A stretch of DNA of 64,000 nt, taken from positions 3,227-67,226 of the forward strand of contig JBPYEZ010000123.1 in the NCBI GenBank assembly GCA_051984395.1. Reading direction: 5' to 3'. Of this stretch, positions 9,723 to 52,419 are shown one piece after another. The first letter of the stretch is position 1. Each line of letters starts with the position of its first letter. This DNA is from Acidimicrobiales bacterium (GTDB lineage Bacteria > Actinomycetota > Acidimicrobiia > Acidimicrobiales > AC-9). The notes beneath the pieces are model-generated. The model searched no databases, was not told the origin of the DNA, and saw nothing but the letters and a program-made list of their open reading frames with translations. Both the position numbers and the translations under genes were made by a program.

Positions 9723-9755
9723 GTCCGTTCGCCGCGGGCGCGCAGGGTCCAGGCC

Positions 9756-10559
9756 GTGACCAGCTATCCTCTCGCCCCGATGGCAATGGGAACGGCGATG
9801 GACGGATGCCGGCTGGAGCATTGCGGGGCGAAGGACGTCGTCCTCGCCGCCAGCCAGGTGGAGGGATGGCTCACTGACGAGCAGGCGCATCAGCTGTGGC
9901 ACTCGGCGTCGCCACTCGAGCCGAAACAGCGAATCGTGGAGATCGGCAGCTTTCGGGGCCGATCCACCATTGCGCTGGCGTTGGCGGCGGCCGAGGGGGT
10001 CGAGATCCTGGCCATCGACCCCCACAGCGGGGTGGACCGGGCGCCGCAGGAGAGCACCCTCAACCTGGAGGTCGGCGCTGAGGACGCCCAGGTCTTCGCC
10101 AGCAACCTGCGTCGCTTCGGGGTGACCGACAGGGTCAACCACATCCAGAAGGAGTCGTTGCACGCGCTCGACGACGTGCCCCGGCCCATCGACGTGCTCT
10201 TCATCGACGGTGCCCACGGGTTCAGAGCTGCCCGGCAGGACATCATCTTCTACGGCGATCTCGTGCCCGACGGGGGCACCATGCTCATCCACGACTCGTT
10301 CTCGTCCCTCGGAGTCACCCTCGCCCTGATGGCGACTCTCTTCGGCAGCGGGCGGTTCCGCTACGCCGGTCGCACCGGCTCTCTCGCGGTCTACCTCCGG
10401 GCCGATCTGGCTCCCGCCGATCGGCTCCGCAACTGCGGGCTCCAGATCGCCCAGCTCCGCTGGTTCGTTCGAAACGTCGTGATCAAGGGGCTCGTCCTGC
10501 TGCGCCAGAAGCGTCTCGTCAGAGCGCTGGGCCACACCACGGGCCCCTGGCCCTTCTGA
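9756..10559 (+). CDS. Class I SAM-dependent methyltransferase (Methyltransf_24-like)
   Basis: IVEIGSFRGRSTIALA, ILAIDPH and DVLFIDGAHGFRAARQDI...GGTMLIHD are present. The start may instead be the internal ATG at 9780. Confidence 0.8.
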   Translation: MTSYPLAPMAMGTAMDGCRLEHCGAKDVVLAASQVEGWLTDEQAHQLWHSASPLEPKQRIVEIGSFRGRSTIALALAAAEGVEILAIDPHSGVDRAPQESTLNLEVGAEDAQVFASNLRRFGVTDRVNHIQKESLHALDDVPRPIDVLFIDGAHGFRAARQDIIFYGDLVPDGGTMLIHDSFSSLGVTLALMATLFGSGRFRYAGRTGSLAVYLRADLAPADRLRNCGLQIAQLRWFVRNVVIKGLVLLRQKRLVRALGHTTGPWPF

Positions 10560-37025: not shown

Positions 37026-37922
37026 TTAGCCGCCGGCGGCCCGCCAGTGGTCGACCACCGCCCGGAGCGTGGTGTCGAGAGGGATCTCGGGTCGCCAGCC
37101 GGTGGCGGATCGCAGAAGGGTTGAGTCCCCCCGCAGCACGGGCACATCGGCAGGACGCTCGAGCGCTGGATCCACCTCGAGCTCGAGGTCCGACCCGGCG
37201 ATCGCCAACAGGCGGTGGGCGACATCCTCGATGGCCACGTCGGTGCCGGAGCACACGTTGTACACGCCGCCGGCCTCGCCCCGGAGGAGGAGCAGCCGGT
37301 AGGCCCGGACCACATCGCGCACATCGGTGAAGTCGCGCCGGGGCCGCAGGTTGCCGACAGGCAGCTTCTTGCCCCCCGCCCGCTCGGCCTCCACGATCCG
37401 CTTGGCCAGAGCGGAGACGGCGAAAGCGGGCGCCTGTCCCGGCCCGACGTGGTTGAAGGCGCGGGCCCGAATGACGGGAAGGCCATGGCCCAGATGAGCC
37501 TGCACCCCGAGGAACTCGGCCGCCACCTTGCTCGACGCATAGGGCGAGACGGGCAGGAGCGGGGAGCGCTCGGTGAGCGGCAGGTGCTCGGGCTTGACCG
37601 CGCCGTAGACCTCGGCCGAGCTGGTCAGCAGGACCCGGGGGGGCGCCGGGCAACAGCGGGCCGCCTCGAGCAGGGTGAGCGTCCCGACGGCGTTGACCCG
37701 GAAGACCTCCTCGGGCTGGTCCCACGACTGGCCCACGTGGGTGAAGGCAGCCAGGTGGTAGACGGCATCGGGCGCCGCGTCCAGAAGCGCACGACGGAGC
37801 CCGTCGGCATCGGCGATATCGAGCCCGGCGTCCGCGACGGTCACCTCGTCGGCCGACTCCCGGAGATGGGCCTGGAGCCAGGTCCCGACGAAGCCCTGCC
37901 CTCCCGTGACGAACGCTCGCAC
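37026..37922 (-). CDS. NAD-dependent epimerase/dehydratase family protein (GDP-6-deoxy-mannose reductase-like)
   Basis: VTGGQGFVGTWL, SSAEVYG and the catalytic YASSK are present. Confidence 0.88.
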   Translation of the reverse strand: MRAFVTGGQGFVGTWLQAHLRESADEVTVADAGLDIADADGLRRALLDAAPDAVYHLAAFTHVGQSWDQPEEVFRVNAVGTLTLLEAARCCPAPPRVLLTSSAEVYGAVKPEHLPLTERSPLLPVSPYASSKVAAEFLGVQAHLGHGLPVIRARAFNHVGPGQAPAFAVSALAKRIVEAERAGGKKLPVGNLRPRRDFTDVRDVVRAYRLLLLRGEAGGVYNVCSGTDVAIEDVAHRLLAIAGSDLELEVDPALERPADVPVLRGDSTLLRSATGWRPEIPLDTTLRAVVDHWRAAGG

Positions 37923-37933
37923 GGCGGCTCACG

Positions 37934-39091
37934 CTAGTCGGGCTCTCGCGGACCCTTTCGGGAGGCGATCGCCGCTCGATAGGCGTCAACGTGCCCGGCC
38001 GCACTGGCCGGCCAGTTGTGCCGGGCGGCCACTGCCAGCCCCCGCGTCCTCCGGGCGACCAGACCGTCGTCGCGCCGCACCAGGAGGTCGAGCGCACCGG
38101 CGAGGCCGTCGACGTCGCCGGGGGCGACCAGCACCGCGGCCCCCTGTACCACCTCCTGCATAGCCGAGCCCGTGGTGGTGACGAGCGGGGCGCCGCACGC
38201 CAGCGCCTCCAGGGCCGGCAGCCCGAAGCCCTCCTCCAGAGAGGGATAGGCGACCGCCGCGGCCTGCCGCAGCAGGGCGGCGACCAGGTTGTCGGCGACA
38301 TAGCCGGCGCGCACGACGCGGTCGCCGTGGCGGGCCTCGGCGATCGCCTCGTCGACCGCCGCCGCCCCCCAGCCGGCTCCGCCGGCCAGCACGAGGCTGA
38401 GCCCGGGATGGGCGGCGCACATCCGGTCGAAGGCCCGCACCAGGGTGGGCACGTCCTTGCGGGGCTCGAGCGTGCCCACGAAGGCCACGTAGGGGCCGGT
38501 GATACCGAGGCGGACCAGCTCCGCCCTGTCGGCCCCCGGCGCCGGCTCGTCGGGCCGGAAGCGCTCGTGGTCGACGCCGTGCGGCACGACGTGGACCGGC
38601 CCTGTCGGCGGGCAGATCTCCGAGAGGCGCTCGGCGGTGCGGGCGCTCACGCACACCAGCGCATCGGCGTGGCGAGCCGCCACGCGGATGGCCCGGCGGA
38701 AGAACGGGATGCGCGTCCGACGGTGCCACTCGGGATGGTCGAAGAACGTCAGGTCGTGGATGGTCACGACCCGGGGCAGCGACGACGCTTCGGGCATCGT
38801 GTAGTGAGGGCCGTGATGCACATCGACGGGGAGCCGGCGCAACCGCATCGGCAGCCGGGACTGCTCCCACGCCAGGCGCACCGGGCGCGGAGCCGGGGCC
38901 ACCGCCTCCACCGCGGCATCCGGCGCCAGCGCCCGCCAACGCTCGGCGTCCTCGGATCGCGACACCAGCGTCAGCTCAACGTCGGATCGGTCCGCCAGCG
39001 CCGCAGCCAACCCCAGCGTGTACCGGCCTGCGCCCGCCGGCTCTGCCGGCACCGCGCTGACGTCGAGGCTGAGACGTACGAGATCGGTCAC
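37934..39091 (-). CDS. Glycosyltransferase family 4 (GT-B)
   Basis: GTGA overlap with the upstream GT4 stop. GTLEPRKD and PSLEEGFGLPALEALACGAPLV (the EX7E region) are present. Confidence 0.9.
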   Translation of the reverse strand: MTDLVRLSLDVSAVPAEPAGAGRYTLGLAAALADRSDVELTLVSRSEDAERWRALAPDAAVEAVAPAPRPVRLAWEQSRLPMRLRRLPVDVHHGPHYTMPEASSLPRVVTIHDLTFFDHPEWHRRTRIPFFRRAIRVAARHADALVCVSARTAERLSEICPPTGPVHVVPHGVDHERFRPDEPAPGADRAELVRLGITGPYVAFVGTLEPRKDVPTLVRAFDRMCAAHPGLSLVLAGGAGWGAAAVDEAIAEARHGDRVVRAGYVADNLVAALLRQAAAVAYPSLEEGFGLPALEALACGAPLVTTTGSAMQEVVQGAAVLVAPGDVDGLAGALDLLVRRDDGLVARRTRGLAVAARHNWPASAAGHVDAYRAAIASRKGPREPD

Positions 39092-40152
39092 AGCAGCTGC
39101 TCCCAGAGCGCCACATGACGGCGTGCGGTGGACTCCCAGGTGACGTGCTCCACGCGTCTGCGTGCGCTGGCGACGAGCCCGTCTCTGACCGGGCCGTCGA
39201 GCGAGGCGCGCACCAGCCCCTCGGCGATGGCGTCGACGCTCAGGGGGTCCACCTCGATCGCCGCACCCTGGGTGCTGGGCATGGGGCTGGCCACGACCGG
39301 TGCGCCCGCGGCCATCGCCTCGAGAGCGGGCAGACCGTAGCCCTCGTGGAGCGGGACGTAGGCCAGACACCGGCACCCTGCGTACAGAGCGGCCAGGACG
39401 GTCGCCGGCACCTCTCCCAGCGGCACGACCCCCGGACGAGGGTGCAGCGCGCCCCCCCATCCATGGGGACCGACGACCACGAGCGGCCATGGCTCCGGCA
39501 GGCGGGACCGGGCCCGGTCGAAGGCGTCGCACAGACGCTCGAGGTTCTTCCTGGGCTCGTTGGTTCCCACACTCAGAAGGTATGGCGTCTCGACGCCAGC
39601 GCGGCCCAGAAGCTCGCGGGCGGCCGCGTCATCGGCCCTCGGCAGATGGTCGGCGCCCTCCTCGAACTGCGCCACCCGCTCTGGCGGAGCTCCGGCGTCC
39701 CGGAGCGCCGCTGCGGTCGCGGCTGACGGCGCCAGCAGGAGGCGTGCTCGTCGCAGCGCCCGTCGCAGCGCGGCCTCGTGCCACCGACGCCCCCGAGCCG
39801 GGAACGCATCCGGCACCTCGCGCCAGGCCAGGTCGTGGACGGTCGCCACGGACGGCGCCCGGCTGCGGGGAACGGCGAGCGAGACGGCGTGCACCAGGTC
39901 GAACCCGTCCGGCGCGCCGAGGACGCCGAGGTCCCACGCCCGGGTGAGCAGCGGCCCCGGGAGCGACGAGGCCACGACCGGCACTCCGAGCGAGGCGAGC
40001 GGATCGATGCCGGCGCCGGGTGAGCTGGCAAGGAGGGCGATCTCGGGAGCAGGGTTCAGGCGCCCCAGTCCGTGCAGCAGACCGCGTGCGTAGGTGCCGA
40101 TGCCGCCAGGGGCCCTCCTGCGCAGCTGCTCGACGACGATCAGGACCCTCAC
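39088..40152 (-). CDS. Glycosyltransferase family 4 (GT-B)
   Basis: MRVLIVVEQLRRRAPGGIGTY, GTNEPRKN and PLHEGYGLPALEAMAAGAPVV are present. Confidence 0.9.
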   Translation of the reverse strand: MRVLIVVEQLRRRAPGGIGTYARGLLHGLGRLNPAPEIALLASSPGAGIDPLASLGVPVVASSLPGPLLTRAWDLGVLGAPDGFDLVHAVSLAVPRSRAPSVATVHDLAWREVPDAFPARGRRWHEAALRRALRRARLLLAPSAATAAALRDAGAPPERVAQFEEGADHLPRADDAAARELLGRAGVETPYLLSVGTNEPRKNLERLCDAFDRARSRLPEPWPLVVVGPHGWGGALHPRPGVVPLGEVPATVLAALYAGCRCLAYVPLHEGYGLPALEAMAAGAPVVASPMPSTQGAAIEVDPLSVDAIAEGLVRASLDGPVRDGLVASARRRVEHVTWESTARRHVALWEQLL

Positions 40153-40158
40153 TGGATC

Positions 40159-41346
40159 TCAGGCGGCAGCGGCCGACGCGTCCCGGTAGAGAGCGGCGAG
40201 GCCGGCCGCGCACTCCTTCCAGCTGAAGGCCCCGACTCGCTGCCGGCCCCTCGCCACCAGATCGGCTCTCGCCCCGTCGTCGACGAGCAGGCGATCGATG
40301 GCGGCGGCCAGTACGTCGGCGTCATCCGGCTCGACCAGCTCGGCGCCGTCACCGACCACCTCGGGCAGTGCCCCCGCGGTGGTGGTCACGACGGGAACCC
40401 CCGCCGCCATCGCCTCGAGCGGCGGGAACCCGAAGCCCTCGTAGACCGACGGGAACGCGAACAGCGTGGCCTGCCGAAGCAGACGGGAACGGTGGGCCTG
40501 GCTCACGTAGCCCAGTCTCACCAGGCGGTCGCGCCACGGCGAGGCGGCGACGGCCGCCTCGAAGCCCTCCATGCCCCAGCCGGGCCGCCCCGCCACCACC
40601 AGCGACAGGTCTCGATGGCGGTCGGCCACCTTGTCGAAGGCCCGCACCAGGTTGGCGACGTCCTTCCTCGGCTCGACCGTGCCCAGGGCGAGCACGTACG
40701 GGCCGTCTGGTACCCACTCTTCCGGGGCCGGCCTCCCGGGCCCAGCTCCGGTGGCGCTGCCCCCGCCGGTCCTGGCGTCGGCGCACTCGACCGGCGGGAC
40801 ACCGTGGTGAACGGCGCGAACCCGCTCGGGCACCGCGCCCAGCAGCTCGACGACCTCGTCCCGCACGAACGCCGAGGGGGTGTGGACCCAGGCTCCCTGT
40901 CGGATGGCTCGGCGCACGAGCGGAGGGAAGGTCTGCGTGTAGTGGTCGCACATCTCCGGGAAGCGGACCGTCGTGAGGTCGTGCACGGTGAGCACCCGGG
41001 CCGCTCGCCGGGCCGGCGGAACGATGAAGTTCGTGCCATGGACCACGTCGACCGCGCCCGTGAACCACTCGATCGGCGGCAGCGACGTCAGTCGCCAGGC
41101 CCGGTGGACGGGCCGGGCGGGCATCGGCCTGTCGACCGCGGCCACCCCGGCGGGCAGGTGCTCGACGATCCGCCCCCGTCGCCGCCAGCTCACCGCGAAG
41201 GCGCGCACACGAAGGTCCTCGACCGCGGCCAGGGCGGCCAGGGCGCCGACACAGAAGGCGCCGATGCCGGCGGTCGTCCCGAGCAGGGGCGTGGCGTCGA
41301 AGGCCACGTCCAGGCCCGGCGGACCCGTCGCGCCCGAGCTTCGCAT
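40159..41346 (-). CDS. Glycosyltransferase family 4 (GT-B)
   Basis: ATG at 41346. GTVEPRKD and PSVYEGFGFPPLEAMAAGVPVV are present. Confidence 0.88.
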   Translation of the reverse strand: MRSSGATGPPGLDVAFDATPLLGTTAGIGAFCVGALAALAAVEDLRVRAFAVSWRRRGRIVEHLPAGVAAVDRPMPARPVHRAWRLTSLPPIEWFTGAVDVVHGTNFIVPPARRAARVLTVHDLTTVRFPEMCDHYTQTFPPLVRRAIRQGAWVHTPSAFVRDEVVELLGAVPERVRAVHHGVPPVECADARTGGGSATGAGPGRPAPEEWVPDGPYVLALGTVEPRKDVANLVRAFDKVADRHRDLSLVVAGRPGWGMEGFEAAVAASPWRDRLVRLGYVSQAHRSRLLRQATLFAFPSVYEGFGFPPLEAMAAGVPVVTTTAGALPEVVGDGAELVEPDDADVLAAAIDRLLVDDGARADLVARGRQRVGAFSWKECAAGLAALYRDASAAAA

Positions 41347-41386
41347 CACCGGAGCCTCCCACACGCCACGGGCGGGGAGGTCGAGC

Positions 41387-42373
41387 ATGATTAGCCTGAC
41401 GGGCATGATCGCTGCCCTGGCCGGAGGCGTGGGCGCCGCCCGCCTCCTGGGTGGTATGACCCGCGTCGTCTCTCCACGTGACATCACGGTCGTGGTCAAC
41501 ACGGGTGATGACACGGTCCTGCACGGCCTGCATGTGAGCCCCGACCTCGACACCGTCACCTACAGCCTCGCCGGTGTGGTCAACCAGGAGACGGGCTGGG
41601 GACTGGCAGGCGAGACGTGGGCGGCCATGGAGACCCTCGAGCGCTACGGCGGCGAGACCTGGTTCAGGCTGGGAGACCGCGACCTGGCGACCCACCTCTA
41701 TCGCACACAGCGGCTGCGCGACGGGGCTTCGCTGTCGATGGTCACAGCAGAGGTGGCGGCGGCGTGGGACGTCGGCCCGCGCATCCTGCCGATGTCCGAC
41801 GACCCGGTCCGCACCCGGGTCACGCTCGCCGAAGGAGCTGGGGCCGGCCCGGGAGACCGACCCGAGGACCGCGATGTGGAGTTCCAGGACTACTTCGTGC
41901 GACGGCGACACGCGGTGGAGGTGCAGGCCGTCCGCTTCGATGGCGCCGAGTCGGCCCGCCCGGCGCCAGGGGTGCTGGAGGCCATCGAGACAGCGAGGAC
42001 GGTCGTGGTGTGCCCGTCCAACCCCATCGTCTCGATCGGTCCGATCCTCGCCGTGCCTGGCGTCGAGGAGGCGATCGCCGGGCGGCGGGCCGACACGGTG
42101 GCGGTGTCGCCGATCGTGGCCGGCGCCGCGCTCAAAGGGCCGGCGGACCGGCTGCTCACCGAGCTCGGCCACGAGGCATCGGTGGTCGGCGTGGCCCGGC
42201 TCTACGCTCCCCTGGCGTCCACCCTGGTCGTGGACGACGCCGACGCTCCGCTCGCCGACCGGGTCGAGGCGGAGGGAATGCGGTGCGTGGTGGCCCCCGC
42301 CGTGATGAGCTCGCCCGAGCTGGCCGCGGCCCTGGCCAAGGTGGCCCTGGACGCAGGCGGTCGAAGGTCATGA
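41387..42373 (+). CDS. cofD: 2-phospho-L-lactate (or EPPG) transferase CofD/FbiA
   Basis: GGGGAGG lies 6 nt before the ATG. ALAGGVGAARLL, VVNTGDD...HGL.VSPDLDT..Y.L and WFRLGDRDLATH are present. Confidence 0.92.
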   Translation: MISLTGMIAALAGGVGAARLLGGMTRVVSPRDITVVVNTGDDTVLHGLHVSPDLDTVTYSLAGVVNQETGWGLAGETWAAMETLERYGGETWFRLGDRDLATHLYRTQRLRDGASLSMVTAEVAAAWDVGPRILPMSDDPVRTRVTLAEGAGAGPGDRPEDRDVEFQDYFVRRRHAVEVQAVRFDGAESARPAPGVLEAIETARTVVVCPSNPIVSIGPILAVPGVEEAIAGRRADTVAVSPIVAGAALKGPADRLLTELGHEASVVGVARLYAPLASTLVVDDADAPLADRVEAEGMRCVVAPAVMSSPELAAALAKVALDAGGRRS

Positions 42374-43065
42374 GCCTCCAGGTGCTCCCGGTCGCCGGCC
42401 TGCCCGAGGTCGGCGCCGGCGATGTGGTGGCCGACCTCATCGCCGACCGGATCGAGCTCGTTGACGGTGACGTCGTCGTCGTCACCCAGAAGATCGTGTC
42501 CAAGGCCGAAGGGCGACTGGTACCCGTCGACCCCGACGATCCCGGGTCCGTGCGGGAACTGGTCGAGACCGAGGCCACGCGGGTCCTGCGCCGCCGGGAG
42601 GACCTGATCATGACCGAGACCCGCCACGGCTTCGTGTGCGCCAACTCCGGCGTCGACCTCTCGAACGTCGAGTCGGGTCGCGCTGCGCTGCTGCCCGTCG
42701 ATCCGGACCGCTCGGCGCGACGCATACGCGACGGACTACGAGCCCGGACGGCGGTGACCGTCGGGGTCGTGGTATCCGACACCTTCGGCCGCACCTGGCG
42801 TCGCGGCAGCACCGACGTCGCCATAGGTGTGGCCGGCGTGGCCGCCGTGTTGGATCTCCGTGGCACCCGGGACTGGGGCGGTCGGGTCCTCGTGGGCACC
42901 GAGGTGTGCGTGGCGGACGAGCTGGCGGGGGCGGCCGAGCTGGTGATGGGCAAGGCGACAGGGGTGCCGGTCGCCGTCGTACGCGGGGTCGATCCGAGCT
43001 GGCTGCGCGAGTCGTCGGTAGCCGAGGAGGTGGTGCGGCCCTACCGCGAGGACCTGTTCCGCTGA
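42370..43065 (+). CDS. cofE: Coenzyme F420-0:L-glutamate ligase CofE (single-domain, no nitroreductase fusion)
   Basis: ATGA overlap with cofD. VVVVTQKIVSKAEGR, HGFVCANSGVDLSN and VVVSDTFGRTWRRG are present. Confidence 0.9.
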   Translation: MSLQVLPVAGLPEVGAGDVVADLIADRIELVDGDVVVVTQKIVSKAEGRLVPVDPDDPGSVRELVETEATRVLRRREDLIMTETRHGFVCANSGVDLSNVESGRAALLPVDPDRSARRIRDGLRARTAVTVGVVVSDTFGRTWRRGSTDVAIGVAGVAAVLDLRGTRDWGGRVLVGTEVCVADELAGAAELVMGKATGVPVAVVRGVDPSWLRESSVAEEVVRPYREDLFR

Positions 43066-44051
43066 CGCGAGCCGCGCCCACCCTTGGCCGGCCGGCCACC
43101 CCCGCCCCCGTCGGGCGACGTCGCCGCCAGCACGGCGGCCGTTCCGTCCGCCAGGGTCGTCCACGGCTTCCATCCCAGGTGGATGGCGGCGCGCCCCGGA
43201 TCGAGGGACGAGCGGTGGAGCTCTCCCGCCCGGGCCGGCGCGTGGACGGGACGCTGCGAGCTGTCCGCCGCGCTCGCCATCGTCTCGTACAGTCGCAGGA
43301 CCGACGTCTCGGTGCCGGTGCCCACGTTGAGGACCAGGCCGCCACCCCGTTGTCCGGCGCGCGCCATGGCGTCGACGACGTCGTCCACGAAGACGAAATC
43401 CCGAGTCTGGGAGCCGTCGCCGAAGATCGTGCAGCGCTCGCCGGCGACGAGGCGGCCAGCGAAGATGGCGACGACCCCGGCTTCCCCGTGAGGATCCTGG
43501 CGAGGCCCGTAGACGTTGCCGAGGGCCAGCGCGCAGAACTCCATGCTGTGGAGCTCCCGGTAGGCCCTGAGGTAGTCGATGACGGCCAGCTTGCTGACCC
43601 CGTACGGCGACGTCGGAGCGTGCGGAAGCGACTCCCGGGCGGGCAGGTCGGAGGGACGCACGTCGCCGTAGAGCGTGCCCCCACTGGCGGCGAAGACGAT
43701 CTTCGGCACCCCCGCCCGCCTCGCTCCCTCGAGGACCCGCAGGCTGCCGAGGATGTTGATGTCAGCGTCCAGCACCGGGTCGTCCACCGACACCCGCACG
43801 TCGGCCTGGGCAGCCAGGTGGAAGACCACTTCCGGCGGCCGCCGGGCCATGAGGTCGACCAGCTGGGGCGAGCGGATGTCGAGATGATGGAACGTCATGT
43901 CGTTCGAGGATCCGGAGCGGGCGTCGGCCAGGTTGGTGAGCGAGCCGCTCGACAGGTCGTCGACGACGTCCACCGCGTGACCCTCGGCGAGGAGACGGTC
44001 GACCAGCGTCGAGCCGATGAACCCCGCACCGCCGGTGACCAAGGCCCTCAT
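43041..44051 (-). CDS. NAD-dependent epimerase/dehydratase (UDP-hexose 4-epimerase-like)
   Basis: VTGGAGFIGSTLVDRL and the catalytic YGVSK are present. It overlaps the cofE 3' end convergently by 25 nt. Confidence 0.9.
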   Translation of the reverse strand: MRALVTGGAGFIGSTLVDRLLAEGHAVDVVDDLSSGSLTNLADARSGSSNDMTFHHLDIRSPQLVDLMARRPPEVVFHLAAQADVRVSVDDPVLDADINILGSLRVLEGARRAGVPKIVFAASGGTLYGDVRPSDLPARESLPHAPTSPYGVSKLAVIDYLRAYRELHSMEFCALALGNVYGPRQDPHGEAGVVAIFAGRLVAGERCTIFGDGSQTRDFVFVDDVVDAMARAGQRGGGLVLNVGTGTETSVLRLYETMASAADSSQRPVHAPARAGELHRSSLDPGRAAIHLGWKPWTTLADGTAAVLAATSPDGGGGGRPAKGGRGSRQRNRSSR

Positions 44052-45124
44052 GCCGGCACCCGATCGCCGTCCACCCGGGCGCTGGGCTCGATGATCGCCC
44101 CGGCACCCACGACCGACAGCCCGCGCACGACGGCGCTCTCGCCCACCACCGCCTCGGGGCCGACCACCGACGTGTCCACCGTCGCCCCCGCCGCCACCGA
44201 GGCGCCAGGCAGCAGGACCGAGCCCAGCACCGTGGCGCCGCCATCGACCCCGGCCCCGGCGCCGACCACCGAGCTGTCGACGATCGCCCCGCTGGCCACA
44301 CAGCCGCCGTCGCCGACCAGCGAGCCGGCCCGCACATCACCCTCGATCACCGGCGCACCGACCACCCAGACGCCGGGAGACACCTCTCGGGCACCGGGGC
44401 GCGGTGGTCCCGGCCGCGCTCCGGACAACAGGTCCCGGTTGGCCTGGAGGTACTTGGCGGGGGTACCGGCGTCGACCCAGTAGGCGTCGGAGGCGAGTGC
44501 GAACAGCCGCCCCGCTTCCACCAGGGCCGGGAAAGTCTCCCGCTCGATCGACACCCGCCGCTCGCGGTCGATGAGGTCGAGCACCGAGGGCTCGAGGACA
44601 TAGGTGCCGGCGTTGATCAGGTTGGTGGGAGCCCGCCCGGCCTCGGGCTTCTCGATGAAGGCCATGACCCGCCCCTCCCCATCCGTGGGCACCACGCCGA
44701 ACGAGGAGGGGTCCGGCACGGGTGTCAGGCTGATCGACGCCTCCGCACCTGTCTGGCGGTGGAACCGGATCAGCGCGCTCACGTCGAGATCGGTGAGGAC
44801 GTCGCCGTTCACCACGAGGAAGGTGTCGTCGATGCCGCCGTGGGCAGCTGCGAAGGCGATGGCGCCAGCGGTGTCGAGCGGAGCCGGTTCGACCGCGTAG
44901 CCGAGCCGAACCCCGCCGGCCCGGTCGTCCGGAAAGGCGCTGAAGAACGCGTCGGGCCGATAACCGAGCGACAACAACGCCTCCTCCACACCATGGGCTG
45001 CCAAATGGGACAGGACGCGCTCGATCATCGTCTGCTCCACCACCGGGAGCAGCTGCTTGGGGATCGAGTGTGTCAGCGGTCGAAGGCGCGTCCCCTCACC
45101 CCCGACCAGCACGACAGCTCTCAC
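44048..45124 (-). CDS. Sugar-1-phosphate nucleotidyltransferase (mannose-1-phosphate guanylyltransferase-like) with left-handed beta-helix C-terminus
   Basis: GTG at 45124. VLVGGEGTRLRPLT..IPKQLLPV is followed by C-terminal hexapeptide repeats. An ATGA overlap joins it to the downstream epimerase. Confidence 0.9.
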   Translation of the reverse strand: MRAVVLVGGEGTRLRPLTHSIPKQLLPVVEQTMIERVLSHLAAHGVEEALLSLGYRPDAFFSAFPDDRAGGVRLGYAVEPAPLDTAGAIAFAAAHGGIDDTFLVVNGDVLTDLDVSALIRFHRQTGAEASISLTPVPDPSSFGVVPTDGEGRVMAFIEKPEAGRAPTNLINAGTYVLEPSVLDLIDRERRVSIERETFPALVEAGRLFALASDAYWVDAGTPAKYLQANRDLLSGARPGPPRPGAREVSPGVWVVGAPVIEGDVRAGSLVGDGGCVASGAIVDSSVVGAGAGVDGGATVLGSVLLPGASVAAGATVDTSVVGPEAVVGESAVVRGLSVVGAGAIIEPSARVDGDRVPA

Positions 45125-45135
45125 GGGATGCGACC

Positions 45136-46047
45136 CTACCGCGGGGGTCGGGGCCGCCCCGCTGCCCGCTGGGCAGCGGCGGCGCCGGCCCGCAGCACGA
45201 GCCCCACCGCCACCACAGGCAGAAGGAGGCGACGCCAGCCTGAAGTGGTACGCCAGGCGAAGCGCAGCAGAGAGCGGTGATGGGCGACGATCATCCGGTA
45301 CGGATGCTGATCGGTCGACACTCCCTGGACGTGGAGGACACAGCCCGACGGTTCGTAGGCGACTCCCCACCCCGCCCGCCGCAGACGCCAGCACAGGTCG
45401 ACGTCCTCCAGGTACATGAAGTACGAGACGTCGAAGCCGCCCAGGTCCTCGAGCGCCTGTCGCCGGGCCAGGAAGCACGATCCCGACACCCAGTCGACGC
45501 TCCGCCTGCCGCCGTGATCCCAATCCAGCATCTTGTAGCTCCGGCTGAACCGGTTCCTCGGGGCCACCAGGCCGAGGAAGCCGTGCCCCATCGCGTCGAC
45601 CAGGGAGGGAAACGTGCGGGCCGAGGGATACAGCGTCTCGTCGGAGTTGAGCAGCCGAGGCCCGACCAGTGCCAGTGCGGGGTCGGCGTCGAGGACGGCC
45701 GCCATGGCGGCCACGGAGTCGGGGCGAACGACGACGTCGGCGTTGCACACCAGCACCAGCTCGCGGTTACCCTCCGCCAGACCCCGGTTGGCCCCGCCGC
45801 CGTAGCCGAGGTTGGCCTCGGTCTCGATGAACCGGACCTCGGGATCGGCTGCCGCCAGAGCCGCGCCCGAGCCGTCCACGGAGCCGTTGTCGACGACGAT
45901 GATGTCGGCCAGGCCGTCGTCCCTCAGGCTGGCCACGCACGCCAGCAGCTCGTCGCGGGCGTTGTAGTTCACGACCACCGCCTCGACCCGCCCGGCGACC
46001 TCGGACGAGGGCTCCTCGTGAGGTCGCTCCACCCTGCGCTGGCTCAC
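45136..46047 (-). CDS. Glycosyltransferase family 2 (WbbL-like rhamnosyltransferase)
   Basis: VVVNYNARDEL, IIVVDNGSVDGS, NLGYGGGANRG and the FMYLEDVDLCWR motif are present. Confidence 0.9.
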   Translation of the reverse strand: MSQRRVERPHEEPSSEVAGRVEAVVVNYNARDELLACVASLRDDGLADIIVVDNGSVDGSGAALAAADPEVRFIETEANLGYGGGANRGLAEGNRELVLVCNADVVVRPDSVAAMAAVLDADPALALVGPRLLNSDETLYPSARTFPSLVDAMGHGFLGLVAPRNRFSRSYKMLDWDHGGRRSVDWVSGSCFLARRQALEDLGGFDVSYFMYLEDVDLCWRLRRAGWGVAYEPSGCVLHVQGVSTDQHPYRMIVAHHRSLLRFAWRTTSGWRRLLLPVVAVGLVLRAGAAAAQRAAGRPRPPR

Positions 46048-46760
46048 CGCTCGGGCCGGAGGCGGTAGCGGGCGAGCGTCCGCAGGGCTCCCATCCCGTC
46101 GCGCCAGGTGAACTTGGTGCCTTCACTTGCGTCCCGACCGGCATAGGAGATGGGAACCTCGTAGATGCGGTGCCCCCGGCGCAGGACCTTGGCTGTGATC
46201 TCGGGCTCGAAGTCGAAGCGGTCCGACTCGATGGTGATGCCGTCGAGAACCCGGCGGTCGAACAGCTTGTAGCCCGTCTCCATGTCCGAGAGCGTCGTGT
46301 TGTAGGCGAGGCTCGTCATGAGCGACAACAGCCGGTTGCCCAGCCAGCTGCCGAGGGGCATGCTCCTGCGCTCGCCGGTGAAACGACTGCCGTAGACGAC
46401 CTGGGCCTTGCCCTTGATGACGGGGTCCAGGAGGCGGGGCCAGTCGTCGGGGTCGTACTCCGCGTCCGCGTCCTGGATCACCACCAGGTCTCCCCTCGCG
46501 TAGGCGAGCGCGGTGCGGATGGCGGCGCCCTTGCCCCGGTTCGACTCGTGGGTGAGCACCCGCAGCGTCGAGTCCTCGAGTGCCGCGAGAATCTTGTCGC
46601 TGCCGTCGGTCGATCCGTCGTCGACCACGATGATCTCGAGATCCAGCGGCAAGTCGACGGCGCGCACCCGACGAACGACCTCGGCCACCGTGTTGCGCTC
46701 GTTGAACACCGGGATCACGACGGAGAGCCTCTCGTACCGCCCCTCGTGCTCATCCACCAT
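46044..46760 (-). CDS. Glycosyltransferase family 2, polyprenyl/dolichyl-phosphate sugar synthase-like (DPM1/ArnC/GtrB clade, soluble form)
   Basis: ATG at 46760. [49 protein letters not shown] and FEPEITAK are present. Confidence 0.88.
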
Positions 46761-47730
46761 GGCGATCCACCTCGGCAGCGAAGTACGACAGCGTCTGGGC
46801 CAGTCCCTCACGGATCGGGATGTGGGGCTCCCATCCCAGTGCCGACCGTGCCAGGCTGATATCGGGCCGCCGCTGAGAGGGGTCGTCCACCGGAAGGGGC
46901 TCGTGGATCACCTCCGACGACGAGCCGGTGATCTCGATGATCGTCTCGGCCAGCTCCGCCACGGTGAGCTCTGTCGGGTTGCCGATGTTCACTGGTCCGA
47001 CCTCGTCCGACTCCAGCAGGGAGAGGATGCCCGCCACCTCGTCGTCGACGTGGCAGAAGCTCCGCGTCTGCGTGCCGTTGCCGTAGACCGTCAACGGCTT
47101 GCCCTGCAGAGCCTGGACGAGCAGGTTGGAGACCACCCGGCCGTCGGACGGCCTCATCCGCGGTCCGTAGGTGTTGAAGATGCGGACGATCCGCACGTCG
47201 ACACCGTGGGCGCGGTGGTAAGCCATCGTGATCGCCTCCGCGAACCGCTTTGCCTCGTCGTACACCCCACGAGGTCCGATCGGGTTGACGTGGCCCCAGT
47301 AGTCCTCGGTCTGGGGGTGGACCTCGGGGTCCCCGTAGACCTCGCTGGTGGAGGCGAGGAGGAAGCGGGCGTCCTTGGCCTTGGCCAGCCCCAGGCAGTT
47401 GTGGGTGCCCAGGCTGCCGACCTTGAGGGTCTGGATCGGCAGCTCGAGGTAGTCGCGAGGCGACGCCGGGCTGGCGAAGTGGAGCACGGCGTCCACGGGA
47501 CCCTCGACCGCCAGGGGCCTGCTCACGTCGTGGCGGACGAAGCTGAAGTCGTCCCGGCCCATCAGGTGCTCGATGTTGGCTTTCGACCCAGTGACGCAGT
47601 TGTCGACGCAGATCACGGTGTGGCCGCGCTCCACCAGCCGATCGCACAGGTGGGAGCCGAGAAAGCCGGCCCCGCCCGTGACGACGATCCGGCCCGGTCC
47701 GGCCGGCCAGGGGCGGGCGAGGTCGGTCAC
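46750..47730 (-). CDS. UDP-glucuronate decarboxylase (UDP-xylose synthase)
   Basis: [43 protein letters not shown] and [10 protein letters not shown] are present. Confidence 0.92.
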
Positions 47731-48998
47731 TGGCGCCCGATCCCCTGGTAGGCGAAGCCGGCTCGCCGCAGGGCGGCCGAGTCCAGCAGGTTGCGAGCGT
47801 CGACGACAGCTGCCTTCGCCATCATGTCCCGCACCTTACGGAAGTCCAGCCAGCGGAACTCATCCCACTCGGTCAACACCACCAGCACCTGGGCTCCCTC
47901 GCAGGCCGCGTACGGGTCGTCGCAGACGTCGATGCGACCGAGCGGACCGCGCACGGTCGGGTCGTAGGCCCGGATGCGCGCCCCCTGGTCGGCCAGGCGG
48001 TCGATGACGTGGAGGGCTGGAGAATCCCGCCGGTCATCGGTGCGGGCCTTGAAGGTGAGCCCCCAGGCGGCCACGTCCACGCCGTCGACGGACCCACCCG
48101 CCTGGGCCACCACCTTGGCCACGACCCTGGAGTGCTGCTCCTCGTTCACGGCGATGACGCCGCGCAGCAGCCCGAAGTCGTACCCCGCGTCCTCGCCGAT
48201 GCGTACCAGCGCCCGGGTGTCCTTGGGGAAGCAGCTCCCACCGAACCCCGGGCCCGGGCGCAGGAACTCGAAGCCGATGCGCCGGTCGTAGCCCATGCCC
48301 AGGACCACCTCACGCACGTCGGCGCCCACCGCCTCGCACAGGTTGGCCACCGCGTTGATGAAGCTGACCTTGGTGGCGAGGAAGGCGTTCGAGGCGTACT
48401 TGATCGTCTCCGCCGACGAGGGGTCGGTCACGATGAGGGGAGCCTGGATCGCCTTGTAGAGCGACGCCACCCGGATGGCGGCGGCCTGGTCGTCGCTGCC
48501 GATGACGATCCGGTCGGGATGGAAGCAGTCGTGCACGGCGGAGCCCTCGCGCAGGAACTCCGGGTTGGACACCACCGTGACGTCGCTGCGCCCGAGGGCC
48601 AGCTCGACGACCCTGGTCGAGCCGACCGGCACGGTCGACTTGTTGACCACGACCGTCTCGGCCGCCAGCACGGGACCGATCTCGGCGGCGGCGGCCTCGA
48701 TGTAGGCCATGTCGGCCGAGCCGTCGTCGCGTTGGGGCGTGGGCACGCACAGGAAGACGAACTCCCTGTCAGGTGCGGCCGCCGCCGCGCCCAGCGCAAA
48801 GGACAGTCGCCCGCCGTCGAGCCCCTCGCGCACCAGCTCGTCGAGGCCGTCCTCCACGATCGGGACCTCACCCCGGCTCAGACGCTCGATCTTGTCCGCC
48901 ACCACGTCGGCGCAGGTCACCTGGTGGCCGAGATGGGCGAGGAAGGCGCCCGTCGTCAGACCGACGTAGCCCGTGCCGACGATCGTGATCGAGCTCAT
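47727..48998 (-). CDS. UDP-glucose 6-dehydrogenase
   Basis: ATG at 48998. [15 protein letters not shown] and the catalytic Cys in [10 protein letters not shown] are present. ATGA overlaps occur at both ends. Confidence 0.93.
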
Positions 48999-49855
48999 CC
49001 CGTGATCTCCTTCACCAGACGCGCCAGGGGCTCCTCCCACCCCGGCAGCAGCGGGAGGCCGGACAGGCGCAGAGCGGCGTTGTCCAGCACCGAGTTCGCC
49101 GGCCTGGGCGCCGCCCGCCGGGGCCGAAGGGCGTCGGTCGTCACCGCCTCGACCCGATCGGGATCGTGCCCGGCGGCTGCCATGATGGCCCGGGCGAAGC
49201 CGAACCACGTCGTGGGTCCCTGGTTGGTCACGTGGAACACGCCCGGTCGCCGGCTCAGGGCGAGCGAGCGCACGACCGGGGCCAGGTCCGAGGTGAACGT
49301 CGGGCATCCGAGCTGGTCGTCGACGAAGCGCAGCGGTCCTCCCTCGGCGGCCAGGCGCAGGACGGTCCGCACGACGTTGGTCCCGTGGCGGCCGCAGACC
49401 CAGGAGCTGCGGACCACGGCGTCCCCCCGGTCCAGCTCGGCCTCGCCGGCCAGCTTGGAGCGGCCGTAGACCGACAGGGGGTTGGGCTCGTCCCACTCGT
49501 GGTACGGCCTCGTGGCCCGGCCGTCGAACACGTAGTCGGTGGAGACGTAACAGAGGTGGGCACCCACCTGCCTGGCGCCCTCGGCCATGTGACGGGTACC
49601 CAGGGCGTTGACGGCCATGGCCCGGTCGGGGTCACCTTCGCAGGCGTCCACCGCGGTCCAGGCGGCGGCGTGGACCACCACCTCGGGCCGGAACGATCCC
49701 ATGGCCTGGAGCACGGCATCGCGATCGGTCACGTCGAGGCGGCCCCGGTCGGCGGCCACCACCTCGTAGGCCTTTCCGCCGCCGTCGGCGGCGAACGCCT
49801 CCACGAGGTCGTGGCCCAGCTGGCCGCCGGCGCCGGTGAGCAGCACTCGGGTCAC
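48995..49855 (-). CDS. rfbD: dTDP-4-dehydrorhamnose reductase
   Basis: GTG at 49855 (GTGA overlap with rmlB). LLTGAGGQLG, VSTDYVFDG and YGRSKLAGE are present. Confidence 0.92.
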   Translation of the reverse strand: MTRVLLTGAGGQLGHDLVEAFAADGGGKAYEVVAADRGRLDVTDRDAVLQAMGSFRPEVVVHAAAWTAVDACEGDPDRAMAVNALGTRHMAEGARQVGAHLCYVSTDYVFDGRATRPYHEWDEPNPLSVYGRSKLAGEAELDRGDAVVRSSWVCGRHGTNVVRTVLRLAAEGGPLRFVDDQLGCPTFTSDLAPVVRSLALSRRPGVFHVTNQGPTTWFGFARAIMAAAGHDPDRVEAVTTDALRPRRAAPRPANSVLDNAALRLSGLPLLPGWEEPLARLVKEITG

Positions 49856-50853
49856 GGCGCCCACCCCGTCTCCTGCACCGGAGCCCGGTCCCGTAGCGGC
49901 TCCCACCAGCCCCGGTTCGTCGCGTACCACGCCACCGTGTCGGCCAGGCCCTTCTCGAACGAGGTCAGCGGCTCCCAGCCCAGCCGGCTCCGGATCTTCG
50001 ACGAGTCGAGCAGGTACCGACGGTCGTGTCCAGGCCGGTCGGGCACGATCGTCTTGAGAGAGGACGGGCGGCCCAGGGCGGCCAGGATGTGGTCGGCCAG
50101 CTCCTCGATGCTGGCCTCCTGACCCGACCCCACGTGGTAGGTCTCGCCCACCTCGCCCCGCTCGAGCACGGCGTCGATGGCGAGGCAGTGGTCGTCGACG
50201 TGCAGCCACTCGCGTCGGTGGAGCGTCGAGGCGTACAGCGGCAGGGGGCGGCCCTCGATGGCGTTGGTGGCGAAGAGTGGGATGACCTTCTCGGGGAACT
50301 GGTAGGGACCGTAGTTGTTGCAGCAGTTGGTGATGGTGATGGGCAGCCCGTAGGTCTCGGCGTAGGCGCGCACGGCGTGGTCGCCACCCGCCTTCGATGC
50401 GTTGTACGGAGTGCGGGGTCGGTAGGGCGAGTGCTCGGTGAAGCGCTCGGGGCTGTCGAGGGCCAGGTCGCCGTAGACCTCGCAGGTGGACACGTGGTGG
50501 AACCGCCGCAGGCCGGTCCGCCGGCTCGCCTCGAGCAGGGCCTGGGTGCCGAGCACGTTGGTGCGAAAGAACCTGCTCGGATCGACCACGGCGAGGCTGT
50601 TGTGCGACTCGGCGGCGAAGTTGACGACGACCTCGATGCGGTGCTCGTCGAGCACCTGCTCGAGTCGGCCCTGGTCGCAGATGTCCCCGTGCAGGAAACA
50701 GATGCGCTCCTCCAGGTCGGCCAGGCTGGCCCGGTTTCCCGCGTACGTCAGCGCGTCGTAGACCACCACCCGGTCGTCGGGATGGCTCGCCACCCGGTGA
50801 CGGACGAAGTTCGATCCGATGAACCCGGCTCCGCCGGTGATCAGCACGGCCAT
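49852..50853 (-). CDS. rfbB: dTDP-glucose 4,6-dehydratase
   Basis: ATG at 50853. ITGGAGFIGSNF, STCEVYG, YNASKAG, NNYGPYQFPEK and DHRY are present. Confidence 0.94.
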   Translation of the reverse strand: MAVLITGGAGFIGSNFVRHRVASHPDDRVVVYDALTYAGNRASLADLEERICFLHGDICDQGRLEQVLDEHRIEVVVNFAAESHNSLAVVDPSRFFRTNVLGTQALLEASRRTGLRRFHHVSTCEVYGDLALDSPERFTEHSPYRPRTPYNASKAGGDHAVRAYAETYGLPITITNCCNNYGPYQFPEKVIPLFATNAIEGRPLPLYASTLHRREWLHVDDHCLAIDAVLERGEVGETYHVGSGQEASIEELADHILAALGRPSSLKTIVPDRPGHDRRYLLDSSKIRSRLGWEPLTSFEKGLADTVAWYATNRGWWEPLRDRAPVQETGWAP

Positions 50854-50928
50854 CGGACCGAACACTACGGCGCTCGCCCCTGGTTGGCCTGTTGCGCGCG
50901 GGCCGGGACGGCTCGACCCCACTCCGGG

Positions 50929-52419
50929 TCAGCAGGCGCGGGGATCCCAGGGCGGCAGGGCGGCCGGTGCCGGTGCGGGTGCCGGTGCGGGGGCCGGTGC
51001 TGCGGCCGCCGTCCCCGTGATGCCGGAGAACGAGGTCCCGGTGACCAGGGCCACGTCGGCGCCCTGGAGGGCCGGATCCTGCTGGATGCTGGCGCCACCG
51101 CCGACCCGACCCTGGAGGAGCTGGGCTGCCTGCTGCTTCCCGGGTGCGTACAGCACCTGGGAGGTCGTGGTGTGGGTGCCGGCGGCATTCCCCGTCCCGG
51201 CGACCACGAAGCCCGCCGACCTGAGCTCGGTGGCGGCGCGGGAGGCCTGCTCGGCCGCGCCCGAGCCGTTGAGCACCTGCACCTTCACGCTGGCCGGCGC
51301 CACGGGAGGCGGCGCCGGCGCGCTCGGGGCCGCCGGCTGCACCGGCTTGGGCGGGTTGAGGAACTGCTGGACGGTCTGCTGGCCCCCCGGCTGGTCGAGG
51401 CGCAGCACGTCCCCGAGCTTGGGGAGCACCTCGGGCGTCGTGGGCAGTGTGTAGGTGGGCAGGTTGTTCGGGCTCAGCGACCGGAACCGCATGGCGAGCC
51501 CCAGGATGTCGTTGGTCGACAGCTTGTTGTCGATGGTCACGTCGTGGACCGCGGAGCTGATGATCGAGTTGGCGGTGATCGGGTTGTGTATCCCGGCCGA
51601 GATGGACTTGGCCATGAGGATCCGGATGAAGGTGTGCTGACGGCGGATGCGGCTCAGGTCGCCGTTGCCGTCGTAGTGCCATGACCCGTCGGCGAAGTAC
51701 TGGTAGTCGCGGGAGCGGGCCATGGAGAGGGCCGCCGCCCCGTTCAGGTGCTGACAGCCCGCCTTGGTGATGTTCAGGCCCGAGAATGCGTCCTTGGCCG
51801 GGTCGGGGAAGTTCACGTCGATGCCGCCCACCGCGTTCACCAGGCCCTGGAAGCCGTCGAAGTTCATCGACACGAAGTGGTGGATGGGGATCCCGAGGTC
51901 GGCCTGGATCGTCTGGATCAGCTGCTGGGGACCGTTTCCGAAGCTCGAGTTGATGCGGTCCGTCCGGTTGGTGCCGGCGATGGGGACGAGCAGATCGCGG
52001 GGGATCGACAGCACCGACGCCTGATTGGAGCCGGCATCGATGTGCAGGACCATGGTGACGTCGCTGCGCTGACCGGCGGTGGCGGCGGAGCCCCCGAAGG
52101 CGCTGTTGGCGTTCGGGTCGGTCAGTCCCGAGCGAGAGTCGGAGCCGACGACGAGGATGTTGGTGGGCCCGTTGGTCGCCGGCGTCAGGCCGGGAATGTC
52201 GACCGAGTTGATCTCCCCCAGGCGGAGCTTCACGTAGAGGTACCCGAGAGCGGTCGCCAACACGATGGCGGCGACGGCGACGTTGCCGCCGATCAGTACG
52301 CGTCGTGGCCACCGGCGCGCACCAATGTGTCGAGGCCGGGTGGCCGGGCGCTCGGGAGCGACCGTGTCGCCTCGGGTGGCCACAGCGAAAATTAGGGTAC
52401 CAGCGGCCAGACCGGGCAT
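50929..52419 (-). CDS. LCP (LytR-CpsA-Psr) family glycopolymer ligase, second copy
   Basis: There is a TM helix. NILVVGSDSR, SDVTMVLHID...VLSIPRD and SRIRRQHTFIR are present, followed by LytR_C (VKVQVLNGSGAAEQASRAATELRSAGF) and an (AP)n tail. Confidence 0.9.
   Translation of the reverse strand: MPGLAAGTLIFAVATRGDTVAPERPATRPRHIGARRWPRRVLIGGNVAVAAIVLATALGYLYVKLRLGEINSVDIPGLTPATNGPTNILVVGSDSRSGLTDPNANSAFGGSAATAGQRSDVTMVLHIDAGSNQASVLSIPRDLLVPIAGTNRTDRINSSFGNGPQQLIQTIQADLGIPIHHFVSMNFDGFQGLVNAVGGIDVNFPDPAKDAFSGLNITKAGCQHLNGAAALSMARSRDYQYFADGSWHYDGNGDLSRIRRQHTFIRILMAKSISAGIHNPITANSIISSAVHDVTIDNKLSTNDILGLAMRFRSLSPNNLPTYTLPTTPEVLPKLGDVLRLDQPGGQQTVQQFLNPPKPVQPAAPSAPAPPPVAPASVKVQVLNGSGAAEQASRAATELRSAGFVVAGTGNAAGTHTTTSQVLYAPGKQQAAQLLQGRVGGGASIQQDPALQGADVALVTGTSFSGITGTAAAAPAPAPAPAPAPAALPPWDPRAC

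Follow-up and report, generated by a model that had tools for sequence, protein, structure and literature searches.

A conserved Acidimicrobiales wall-glycopolymer operon that pairs UDP-xylose synthesis with a predicted polyprenyl-phosphate glycosyltransferase: a candidate lipid-linked pentose donor pathway

Gene content and conservation of the operon

We analyzed a 64,000-nucleotide (nt) stretch of DNA from an Acidimicrobiales bacterium (contig JBPYEZ010000123.1; hereafter, the window), focusing on three consecutive genes that encode a UDP-glucose 6-dehydrogenase (UGDH), a UDP-glucuronate decarboxylase (UDP-xylose synthase, UXS), and a 238-amino acid (aa) family 2 glycosyltransferase (GT2). 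The window has a G+C content of ~70%, and the proteins it encodes share 90-100% identity with those of Acidimicrobiales metagenome-assembled genomes (MAGs). Its open reading frames (ORFs) were scanned against Pfam and NCBIfam over roughly the 4-54 kb part, apart from several ORFs there; family and structure searches took in ORFs at 4-17 kb and 21-54 kb, and genes at 54-57.6 kb were named only via synteny with a related locus, L084.

The ORF listing places all three genes on the minus strand, as initially annotated, in the middle of a longer minus-strand operon with the order LCP-RmlB-RmlD-UGDH-UXS-GT2-WbbL-like GT2-ManC-GalE-like. The string is headed by a LytR-CpsA-Psr (LCP) glycopolymer-to-peptidoglycan ligase (50929-52419; PF03816, 115 bits, plus LytR_C), followed by the dTDP-glucose 4,6-dehydratase RmlB (49852-50922; TIGR01181, 424 bits, above its cutoff of 365) and the dTDP-4-dehydrorhamnose reductase RmlD (~48995-49870, the start being approximate; TIGR01214, 281 bits, above its cutoff of 224). 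Next come UGDH (47727-48998), UXS (46750-47730, with a GTG start), and the 238-aa GT2 (46044-46760; PF00535, 120 bits). Downstream of these lie a second GT2 of 303 aa, which by position would be a WbbL-like rhamnosyltransferase (45136-46047; PF00535, 76 bits, and a weak TIGR01556 match) and is the sole other glycosyltransferase (GT) within the operon; a ManC/Rv3264c-like sugar-1-phosphate nucleotidyltransferase (44048-45124; NTP_transferase, 157 bits; NF052502 man1P_GTase_Rv, 266 bits, below its cutoff of 440); and a GalE-type NDP-sugar 4-epimerase (43041-44051; 296 bits to PDB 7ys8, a UDP-glucose 4-epimerase).

All junctions checked from RmlD to the WbbL-like GT2 overlap. RmlD and UGDH share an ATGA (ATG at 48998-48996, TGA at 48997-48995), UGDH and UXS share a 4-nt GTGA (GTG at 47730-47728, TGA at 47729-47727), the UXS stop codon (TGA at 46752-46750) falls 11 nt inside the GT2 ORF (ATG at 46760), and the GT2 and the second GT2, which starts with GTG, share another GTGA. 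A Shine-Dalgarno-like GAGGTG lies 7 nt 5' of the GT2 ATG at 46760, ManC starts with a GTG at 45124, 11 nt past the stop of the second GT2, and between 42.5 and 54 kb the coding strand shows no terminator-like site. The initial annotation had described the three central genes as chained by ATGA and 11-nt overlaps; the ORFs, their coordinates, and the 11-nt overlap hold, but the UGDH/UXS overlap is GTGA rather than ATGA. Overlaps of this sort are commonplace in high-GC operons of actinobacteria and carry no particular weight here; what matters in the observation is the conservation of gene order. With regard to gene models, the ManC frame remains open for ~200 codons 5' of the GTG at 45124 (44048-45748), overlapping the WbbL-like gene; naive ORF calling yields a protein of 566 aa, as opposed to the 358 aa indicated by homologues and by the N-terminus MRAVVLVGGEGTRLRPLT.

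We compared the window with eight Acidimicrobiales loci (L081-L088), of which seven are distinct since L081 and L082 are near-identical, and whose GT2s are 72-92% identical to that of the window. The order RmlB-RmlD-UGDH-UXS-GT2-GT2-(~260-aa protein)-ManC-GalE is kept in the seven distinct loci; this is a conserved Acidimicrobiales wall-glycopolymer operon. In Mycobacterium tuberculosis, rmlD (Rv3266c), wbbL (Rv3265c), and manB (Rv3264c) form an operon with nothing between them (PMC9366312). Set against this arrangement, the UGDH-UXS-GT2 trio resembles an insertion into an ancestral actinobacterial operon, between its rmlD and wbbL genes. The additional ~260-aa protein, encoded between the WbbL-like GT2 and ManC in most relatives (L081, 9693-10478; L083, 9823-10626; L086, 7733-8581; L087, 7770-8522; L088, 7665-8465) and absent from the window and L084, has one transmembrane (TM) pass, a Thr/Pro/Ser-rich C-terminal tail, and no Pfam match; the single pass and the tail make it a possible glycoprotein.

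The identities of the first two central enzymes are clear. UGDH carries the three UDPG_MGDP_dh domains (PF03721, PF00984, and PF03720) and scores 433.5 bits against TIGR03026 (NDP-sugar dehydrogenase; cutoff, 189.8), its best equivalogs being TuaD (435 bits) and AglM (357 bits), both under their strict cutoffs. UXS matches human UXS1 (2B69 and 4LK3) with 391 bits over residues 14-322, as compared with 130 bits for the next non-UXS structure, ~88 bits for ArnA, and 85 bits for UDP-apiose/xylose synthase (UAXS), and its catalytic motifs STSEVYG and YDEAK align with those of UXS1. The call of a UDP-xylose synthase is therefore upheld as a bona fide UXS, and an ArnA-like identity for the decarboxylase (~88 versus 391 bits) was rejected. 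Together, UGDH and UXS constitute the canonical two-step route from UDP-glucose via UDP-glucuronic acid (UDP-GlcA) to UDP-xylose. Because UXS1-type enzymes, unlike ArnA, release UDP-xylose, an unmodified pentose is a reasonable product of the pathway. Neither in the operon nor among the scanned window ORFs did we find a gene for an aminotransferase, formyltransferase, deformylase, or deacetylase, which agrees with the absence of ArnB/ArnD-like and formyltransferase genes noted initially. The GalE-like enzyme (43041-44051) could interconvert UDP-xylose and UDP-L-arabinose.

The 238-aa GT2 and its family

The best curated NCBIfam matches of the 238-aa GT2 are AglJ (132 bits), PpgS (80.5 bits), a haloarchaeal dolichyl-phosphate (Dol-P)-hexose transferase (75 bits), and ArnC (70.8 bits), all of these models scoring far below cutoff (529 for ArnC, NF007986; 370 for PpgS, NF058614). 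Searching PDB sequences with phmmer returned ArnC (67 bits), PfDPMS (60 bits), and GtrB (44 bits). An AlphaFold (AF2) model built from 56 sequences (predicted local distance difference test score [pLDDT], 79) displays the beta/alpha/beta topology of the GT-A fold, and Foldseek ranks 1 to 22 are all ArnC, DPMS, or GtrB (225-238 aligned columns, taking in ~230 of the 238 residues, with TM-scores of 0.65-0.79), ArnC being the best (E = 8e-17); the soluble enzymes GpgS and MpgS rank next after these polyprenyl-phosphate GTs (TM-score, ~0.74). The protein has no hydrophobic or TM segment, and its C-terminus falls where the first TM helix of ArnC would begin. On the strength of these sequence and model comparisons, the 238-aa GT2 very probably belongs to the polyprenyl-phosphate GT class while lacking a TM anchor, with a predicted DPM1/PpgS-like architecture, and the curated, PDB, and Foldseek matches likewise bear out its initial placement with DPM1, ArnC, and GtrB. 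Human DPM1 is also TM-less. The mycobacterial Ppm1/D2 and PpgS are TM-less enzymes of this class that are partnered by separate small membrane proteins (PMC3485146). Orthology was a different matter: orthology to ArnC was rejected (70.8 versus 529 bits, no TM segment, and no ArnA/B/D/T context), as was orthology to PpgS (80.5 bits versus a cutoff of 370), and no Lnt-like gene, which would mark a Ppm1 context, was seen among the scanned window ORFs.

The catalytic motif of the GT2 reads 97-DADAEYD, with DADLEYD as the family consensus, and D97, D99, E101, R126, W139, R143, and D159 are invariant in the family alignment. Window positions 46458-46478 (GT2 residues 95-101) contain the invariant family DADxEYDP motif. 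In characterized polyprenyl-phosphate GTs, the corresponding DXD motifs are 94DADLQD (GtrB), 100DADLQN (ArnC), and 89DADLQH (DPMS), and R128 and R137 of ArnC, located on or beside its first juxtamembrane helix, are proposed to bind the lipid phosphate (PMC12690121). Aligned by eye only, the invariant R126, W139, and R143 fall on GTVR128 ... SW135FR137 of ArnC, and we infer that they may correspond to its lipid-phosphate region.

At E ≤ 1e-30, the family comprises 2,238 representatives (50% identity clusters). It is pan-bacterial, at 40-59% identity. Whatever sugar it uses, this is a very large and apparently uncharacterized subfamily of TM-less polyprenyl-phosphate GTs. We inspected 20 multidomain representatives and found fusions to PMT_2 GT-C domains in members with 47-53% identity (P0132, P0148, P0174, P0180, and P0239), as well as fusions to class I methyltransferase, GT4, and IspD-like domains. 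The commonest fusion partner is the class I S-adenosylmethionine-dependent methyltransferase, which occurs at either end (P0126, P0130, P0173, P0206, P0212, and P0218). We also surveyed 80 non-Acidimicrobiales loci with GT2 homologues, among the matches listed and mostly from distant phyla. In many of them, a polytopic protein of ~450-800 aa abuts the GT2; five of eight such neighbors sampled match PMT_2 or GT87, and the other three have no Pfam match. Further neighbors are GtrA (L009) and LPG_synthase_TM (L012 and L020). Coupling to GT-C or flippase-like partners is thereby seen across the GT2 family, but not in the Acidimicrobiales operon.

These observations bear on the idea that the 238-aa GT2 works as a peripheral Leloir GT, attaching xylose (or a different sugar) to a growing lipid-diphosphate-linked linker unit or polymer at the cytoplasmic face, alongside the WbbL-like enzyme, with neither an extracytoplasmic donor nor a GT-C being involved. 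Such a role would suit the lack of TM helices, the next-best fold matches to the soluble GT-A enzymes GpgS and MpgS, the position beside the linker-unit rhamnosyltransferase, and the absence of a GT-C or flippase gene from the operon. However, polyprenyl-phosphate GTs account for all of the top matches in both sequence and fold, members of the family carry fused GT-C domains and recur next to GT-C, GtrA, and LPG_synthase_TM genes, and TM-less enzymes of the polyprenyl-phosphate class exist in the form of PpgS and Ppm1/D2 (PMC3485146). We thus regard the peripheral Leloir role as unlikely.

The sugar donor and the place of the GT-C

Linkage of the GT2 to UXS extends beyond Acidimicrobiales in a few cases. 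Two other Actinomycetota MAGs (L020 and L024) encode, in one cluster each, a GT2 orthologue (51-54% identity), a UXS (67-68% identity), and a GalE-like enzyme; L020 additionally encodes LPG_synthase_TM, a GT87 GT-C, Wzy_C, and a Bac_transf initiating transferase. A member from the candidate phyla radiation (CPR; L009) has the order GT4-UXS-GT4-GT2-GtrA::GT4, with UXS two genes upstream of the GT2. In a WOR-3 MAG (L012, 6440-12293), genes for LPG_synthase_TM, a GT2, another GT2, a short-chain dehydrogenase/reductase (SDR), a GT2, and a PMT_2 GT-C follow one another, partly with 4-nt overlaps; the SDR resembles ArnA/UDP-4-keto-pentose synthase (U4kpxs; 162 bits to PRK11908, below cutoff), and the first and third of these GT2s belong to the family studied here. 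By analogy, the L012 locus may be described as a compact Arn-like string in an unrelated phylum.

From these data, we propose that the GT2 would load polyprenyl phosphate with the sugar of a nucleotide-sugar donor at the cytoplasmic membrane face, and that the lipid-linked sugar, once flipped across the membrane, would serve an external GT-C in decorating the LCP-attached wall polymer or some other glycan of the envelope. As UGDH-UXS-GT2 looks like a module inserted between rmlD and wbbL, the most likely donor would be UDP-xylose, supplied by the adjacent upstream gene, or UDP-L-arabinose if the GalE-like enzyme acts on UDP-xylose. That the sugar is a UXS-derived pentose (xylose, or arabinose made from xylose) is our leading guess and a tentative one, whose only footing is gene order together with the insertion-like look relative to mycobacterial rmlD-wbbL-manB. 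The explanation as a whole, comprising the operon, the polyprenyl-phosphate GT, the pentose donor, and external use by a GT-C, is likewise put forward as plausible but short of probable. In its most specific form, in which Acidimicrobiales and perhaps the lineages of L020 and L024 make polyprenyl-phospho-D-xylose (or polyprenyl-phospho-L-arabinopyranose after 4-epimerization) from UDP-xylose by means of a TM-less DADLE-type GT2, as an extracytoplasmic donor for a GT-C decorating an LCP-attached polysaccharide, the proposal is possible yet somewhat doubtful.

Several points weigh against a pentose donor. Among the curated families, the nearest, AglJ, produces Dol-P-hexose, and the metal-binding Gln of DADLQ is replaced by Glu in the GT2 family, a plausible variation of the motif. 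The adjacency of UXS and GT2, kept in the seven distinct Acidimicrobiales loci, is far from general: a true UXS lies ≤10 kb from the GT2 in 3 of the 80 listed non-Acidimicrobiales loci, and the sugar-nucleotide neighbors in other phyla are heterogeneous (GalE-like, LegB-like, and, in L028 and L054, RmlD-like). An order kept within a single taxonomic order may, moreover, be inherited synteny rather than functional coupling. None of the 20 multidomain representatives is fused to a UXS or another SDR, and the operon lacks a GT-C, GtrA, or flippase-like gene both in the window and in L081-L088. A neighbor-joining (NJ) tree of the GT2s tracks taxonomy, with Acidimicrobiales as sister to other Actinomycetota and Anaerolineae. 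Finally, the same operon provides alternative donors in GDP-mannose (ManC), dTDP-rhamnose (RmlB and RmlD), and UDP-GlcA (UGDH). We also considered whether the UXS-linked GT2s form one clade, and rejected this, the UXS-linked CPR member being placed elsewhere in the NJ tree.

The initial annotation had named an 817-aa GT-C-like protein (31101-33554, minus strand) as the candidate acceptor-side transferase. It matches PF10131 with 41.6 bits (cutoff, 26.4), has 12 hydrophobic segments, and yields an AF2 model (pLDDT, 85.7) for which Foldseek returns AftD (2e-9) and ArnT (9e-6), followed by STT3, AglB, EmbB, PimE, and Pmt4. An invariant G51-G52-D53-x-G55-x-H57 follows the first TM segment in the alignment, D53 being the inferred catalytic residue. 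By sequence and model, the protein is a real GT-C with a predicted AftD/ArnT-like fold. It is encoded in a block of its own: a phosphomannomutase/phosphoglucomutase gene (PMM; 29679-31073, minus strand; PGM_PMM domains I-IV) lies directly downstream, and the order FtsH-CAAX protease-GT-C-PMM-(Trm112)-SIS/PGI-...-HPF-response regulator-SecA is found in the window and in L089. Two homologues (P0286 and P0313) are called as single proteins of ~1,220 aa in which the GT-C is fused to four PGM/PMM domains, either as a real fusion or as gene-calling read-through. In another Actinomycetota MAG (L076, 403-8118), the order is CAAX protease-GT-C (37% identical)-DPM1-like GT2-PMM-PMI; this DPM1-like GT2 has an SQCGLK motif, is 33% identical to the window GT2, and belongs to the other major branch of the tree. 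A GT2 of the L076 type is missing at the equivalent site in the window and in L089. Given the PMM block, the PMM fusions, and the GT2 of L076, the GT-C looks tied to a hexose-phosphate (mannose) pathway and to have had, ancestrally, a GT2 of its own. While the earlier recognition of a GT-C at this site proved correct, its pairing with the UXS-linked GT2 is not supported by these data, and the protein is a candidate partner only through proximity, both genes lying within the same 64 kb. Among the membrane-protein ORFs scanned, the window has no GtrA, no LPG_synthase_TM, and no second GT-C.

The nearest competitor to the pentose proposal is that the GT2 is a polyprenyl-phosphate-hexose synthase (making polyprenyl-phospho-glucose, or polyprenyl-phospho-mannose as an analogue of Ppm1). 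Its adjacency to UXS would then reflect merely a shared wall-polysaccharide operon, and UDP-xylose would be used by a cytoplasmic GT elsewhere, for instance by the GT4s at 37.9-41.6 kb. AglJ as the best curated match (132 bits), the wide distribution of the family mostly away from UXS, the taxonomic pattern of its phylogeny, and the presence of ManC all fit such an enzyme, and the only GT-C found in the window is tied to PMM/PMI, suggesting that a mannose donor is needed. On the other hand, all curated GT2 models score far below cutoff, the GT2 located between GT-C and PMM in L076 represents another subfamily, with 33% identity and a position in the second main clade, and paralogous polyprenyl-phosphate-type GT2s of Acidimicrobiia (L077, described below) could be the hexose enzymes. 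Furthermore, UGDH-UXS-GT2 acts like a block inserted into the rmlD-wbbL-manB arrangement. A hexose substrate is a possibility that we take seriously without favoring it.

Loading of a uronic acid (GlcA, or galacturonic acid [GalA] after epimerization), with UGDH rather than UXS providing the donor, appears very unlikely. The class of the GT2 fits this reaction, UGDH is part of the overlapping gene string, and the operon includes a GalE-type epimerase; RgtE makes a lipid-linked GalA donor in Rhizobium. Nevertheless, the immediate neighbor of the GT2 is UXS and not UGDH, UXS is retained in all Acidimicrobiales loci examined, a decarboxylase between UGDH and the GT2 would be counterproductive if GlcA were the end product, and the GT2 of L020, L024, and L009 has a UXS gene nearby but no UGDH gene.

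Relation to known pathways and neighboring modules

Among known systems, one of the closest is the Arn pathway of Gram-negative bacteria (Ugd, ArnA, ArnB, ArnC, ArnD, ArnE/F, and ArnT). Shared with it are a UDP-glucose dehydrogenase, an SDR-type UDP-GlcA decarboxylase, a polyprenyl-phosphate GT2, for which ArnC is the best PDB match by sequence and fold, and an expected GT-C step. In contrast to the Arn system, the window decarboxylase is a full UXS1-type enzyme, which reduces the 4-keto intermediate, and is not ArnA; the window GT2 lacks the two TM helices and the C-terminal hairpin of ArnC and has DADxE in place of DADLQ; and no aminotransferase, formyltransferase, or deformylase was found, nor does the operon contain ArnT or ArnE/F. 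The logic of UGDH, decarboxylase, polyprenyl-phosphate GT2, and GT-C thus matches Arn, yet the enzymes are not Arn orthologues.

The nearest analogues in actinobacteria are MtxS, taken up below, and the mycobacterial PpgS (Rv3631)/Rv3632/Rv3779 system, in which PpgS makes polyprenyl-phospho-N-acetylgalactosamine from a UDP-sugar for a GT-C that decorates arabinogalactan (PMC3485146). Like the window GT2, for which it is the second-best curated match, PpgS is a small TM-less GT2 of an actinobacterium; unlike PpgS, the window enzyme reaches 80 bits against a cutoff of 370, is not adjoined by an Rv3632-like small membrane partner, and would use a different sugar. GtrB, DPMS/DPM1, and AglJ share the GT-A catalytic domain and the predicted mechanism (DXD motif, metal, and inverting transfer to lipid phosphate), but use hexose donors, score far under their cutoffs, and differ from the window GT2 in motif and C-terminus. 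In Sinorhizobium meliloti, a uxs1-uxe cluster serves to convert UDP-xylose to UDP-L-arabinose for an arabinose-containing polysaccharide, and a UXS and a GalE-type 4-epimerase are encoded with surface-polysaccharide GTs there too; a polyprenyl-phosphate GT2 plus GT-C logic is not known from that system.

As for novelty, decaprenyl-phospho-arabinose, which is made from phosphoribosyl pyrophosphate via epimerization of decaprenyl-phospho-ribose, is a lipid-linked pentose donor in Actinomycetota. MtxS (Rv0539) makes the MTX lipid donor, an extracytoplasmic, lipid-phosphate-linked methylthio-pentose of the same phylum (PMC12088412). Given these two donors, lipid-linked pentose donors are already known as a class in Actinomycetota, but neither derives from UDP-xylose, unlike the donor proposed here. 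The initial suggestion that such a donor had not been described therefore stands for xylose and not for pentoses at large: we found no report of bacterial polyprenyl-phospho-xylose or undecaprenyl-phospho-xylose in the open-access literature, which is a weak negative as subscription literature was outside its scope. A search of the same literature, with the same limit, gave nothing relevant on xylose in Acidimicrobiales cell walls or on dolichyl-phospho-xylose. Old biochemical work in eukaryotes reportedly described dolichyl-phospho-xylose, with no gene assigned.

If correct, the proposal would represent the first gene-assigned lipid-linked xylose donor in bacteria and an amine-free, Gram-positive counterpart of the Arn pathway; should the GT2 use UDP-xylose, a new sugar would join mannose, glucose, N-acetylglucosamine, N-acetylgalactosamine, GalA, 4-deoxy-4-formamido-L-arabinose (Ara4FN), arabinofuranose, and MTX among polyprenyl-phosphate donors. 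What would be new relative to this kind of pathway is the sugar and the TM-less enzyme; with the class of enzyme and the logic of the pathway both known already, the proposal is only modestly surprising in concept. Use of UDP-xylose by the GT2 would also provide a first handle on the envelope chemistry of Acidimicrobiia, which are abundant in soil and water and almost uncultured.

A paralogous GT2 of polyprenyl-phosphate type, 35% identical to that of the window, occurs in an Acidimicrobiia MAG (L077, 9944-16559), where it adjoins a class I methyltransferase gene, with an IF-2B/MtnA-like isomerase and an amidohydrolase encoded nearby. By analogy, and only as an idea, these genes bring to mind the salvage of methylthio sugars and the pathway to the MTX donor of mycobacteria.

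Elsewhere on the minus strand of the window, an Rmd-like GDP-6-deoxy-D-lyxo-4-hexulose reductase is encoded at 37026-37922 (223 bits to PDB 2pk3), adjoined by ORFs at 37934-39532, 39088-40152, and 40159-41559 whose L084 counterparts are three GT4s. The sequences suggest that this region (37026-41559), located beside CofD/CofE genes, forms another polymer module, one built on GDP-D-rhamnose or a 6-deoxyhexose. The plus strand encodes a second ligase of the LCP family (8100-9719) and, immediately after it, a Methyltransf_24 protein (9723-10556), so that, together with the ligase at 50929-52419, the window carries two LCP paralogues.

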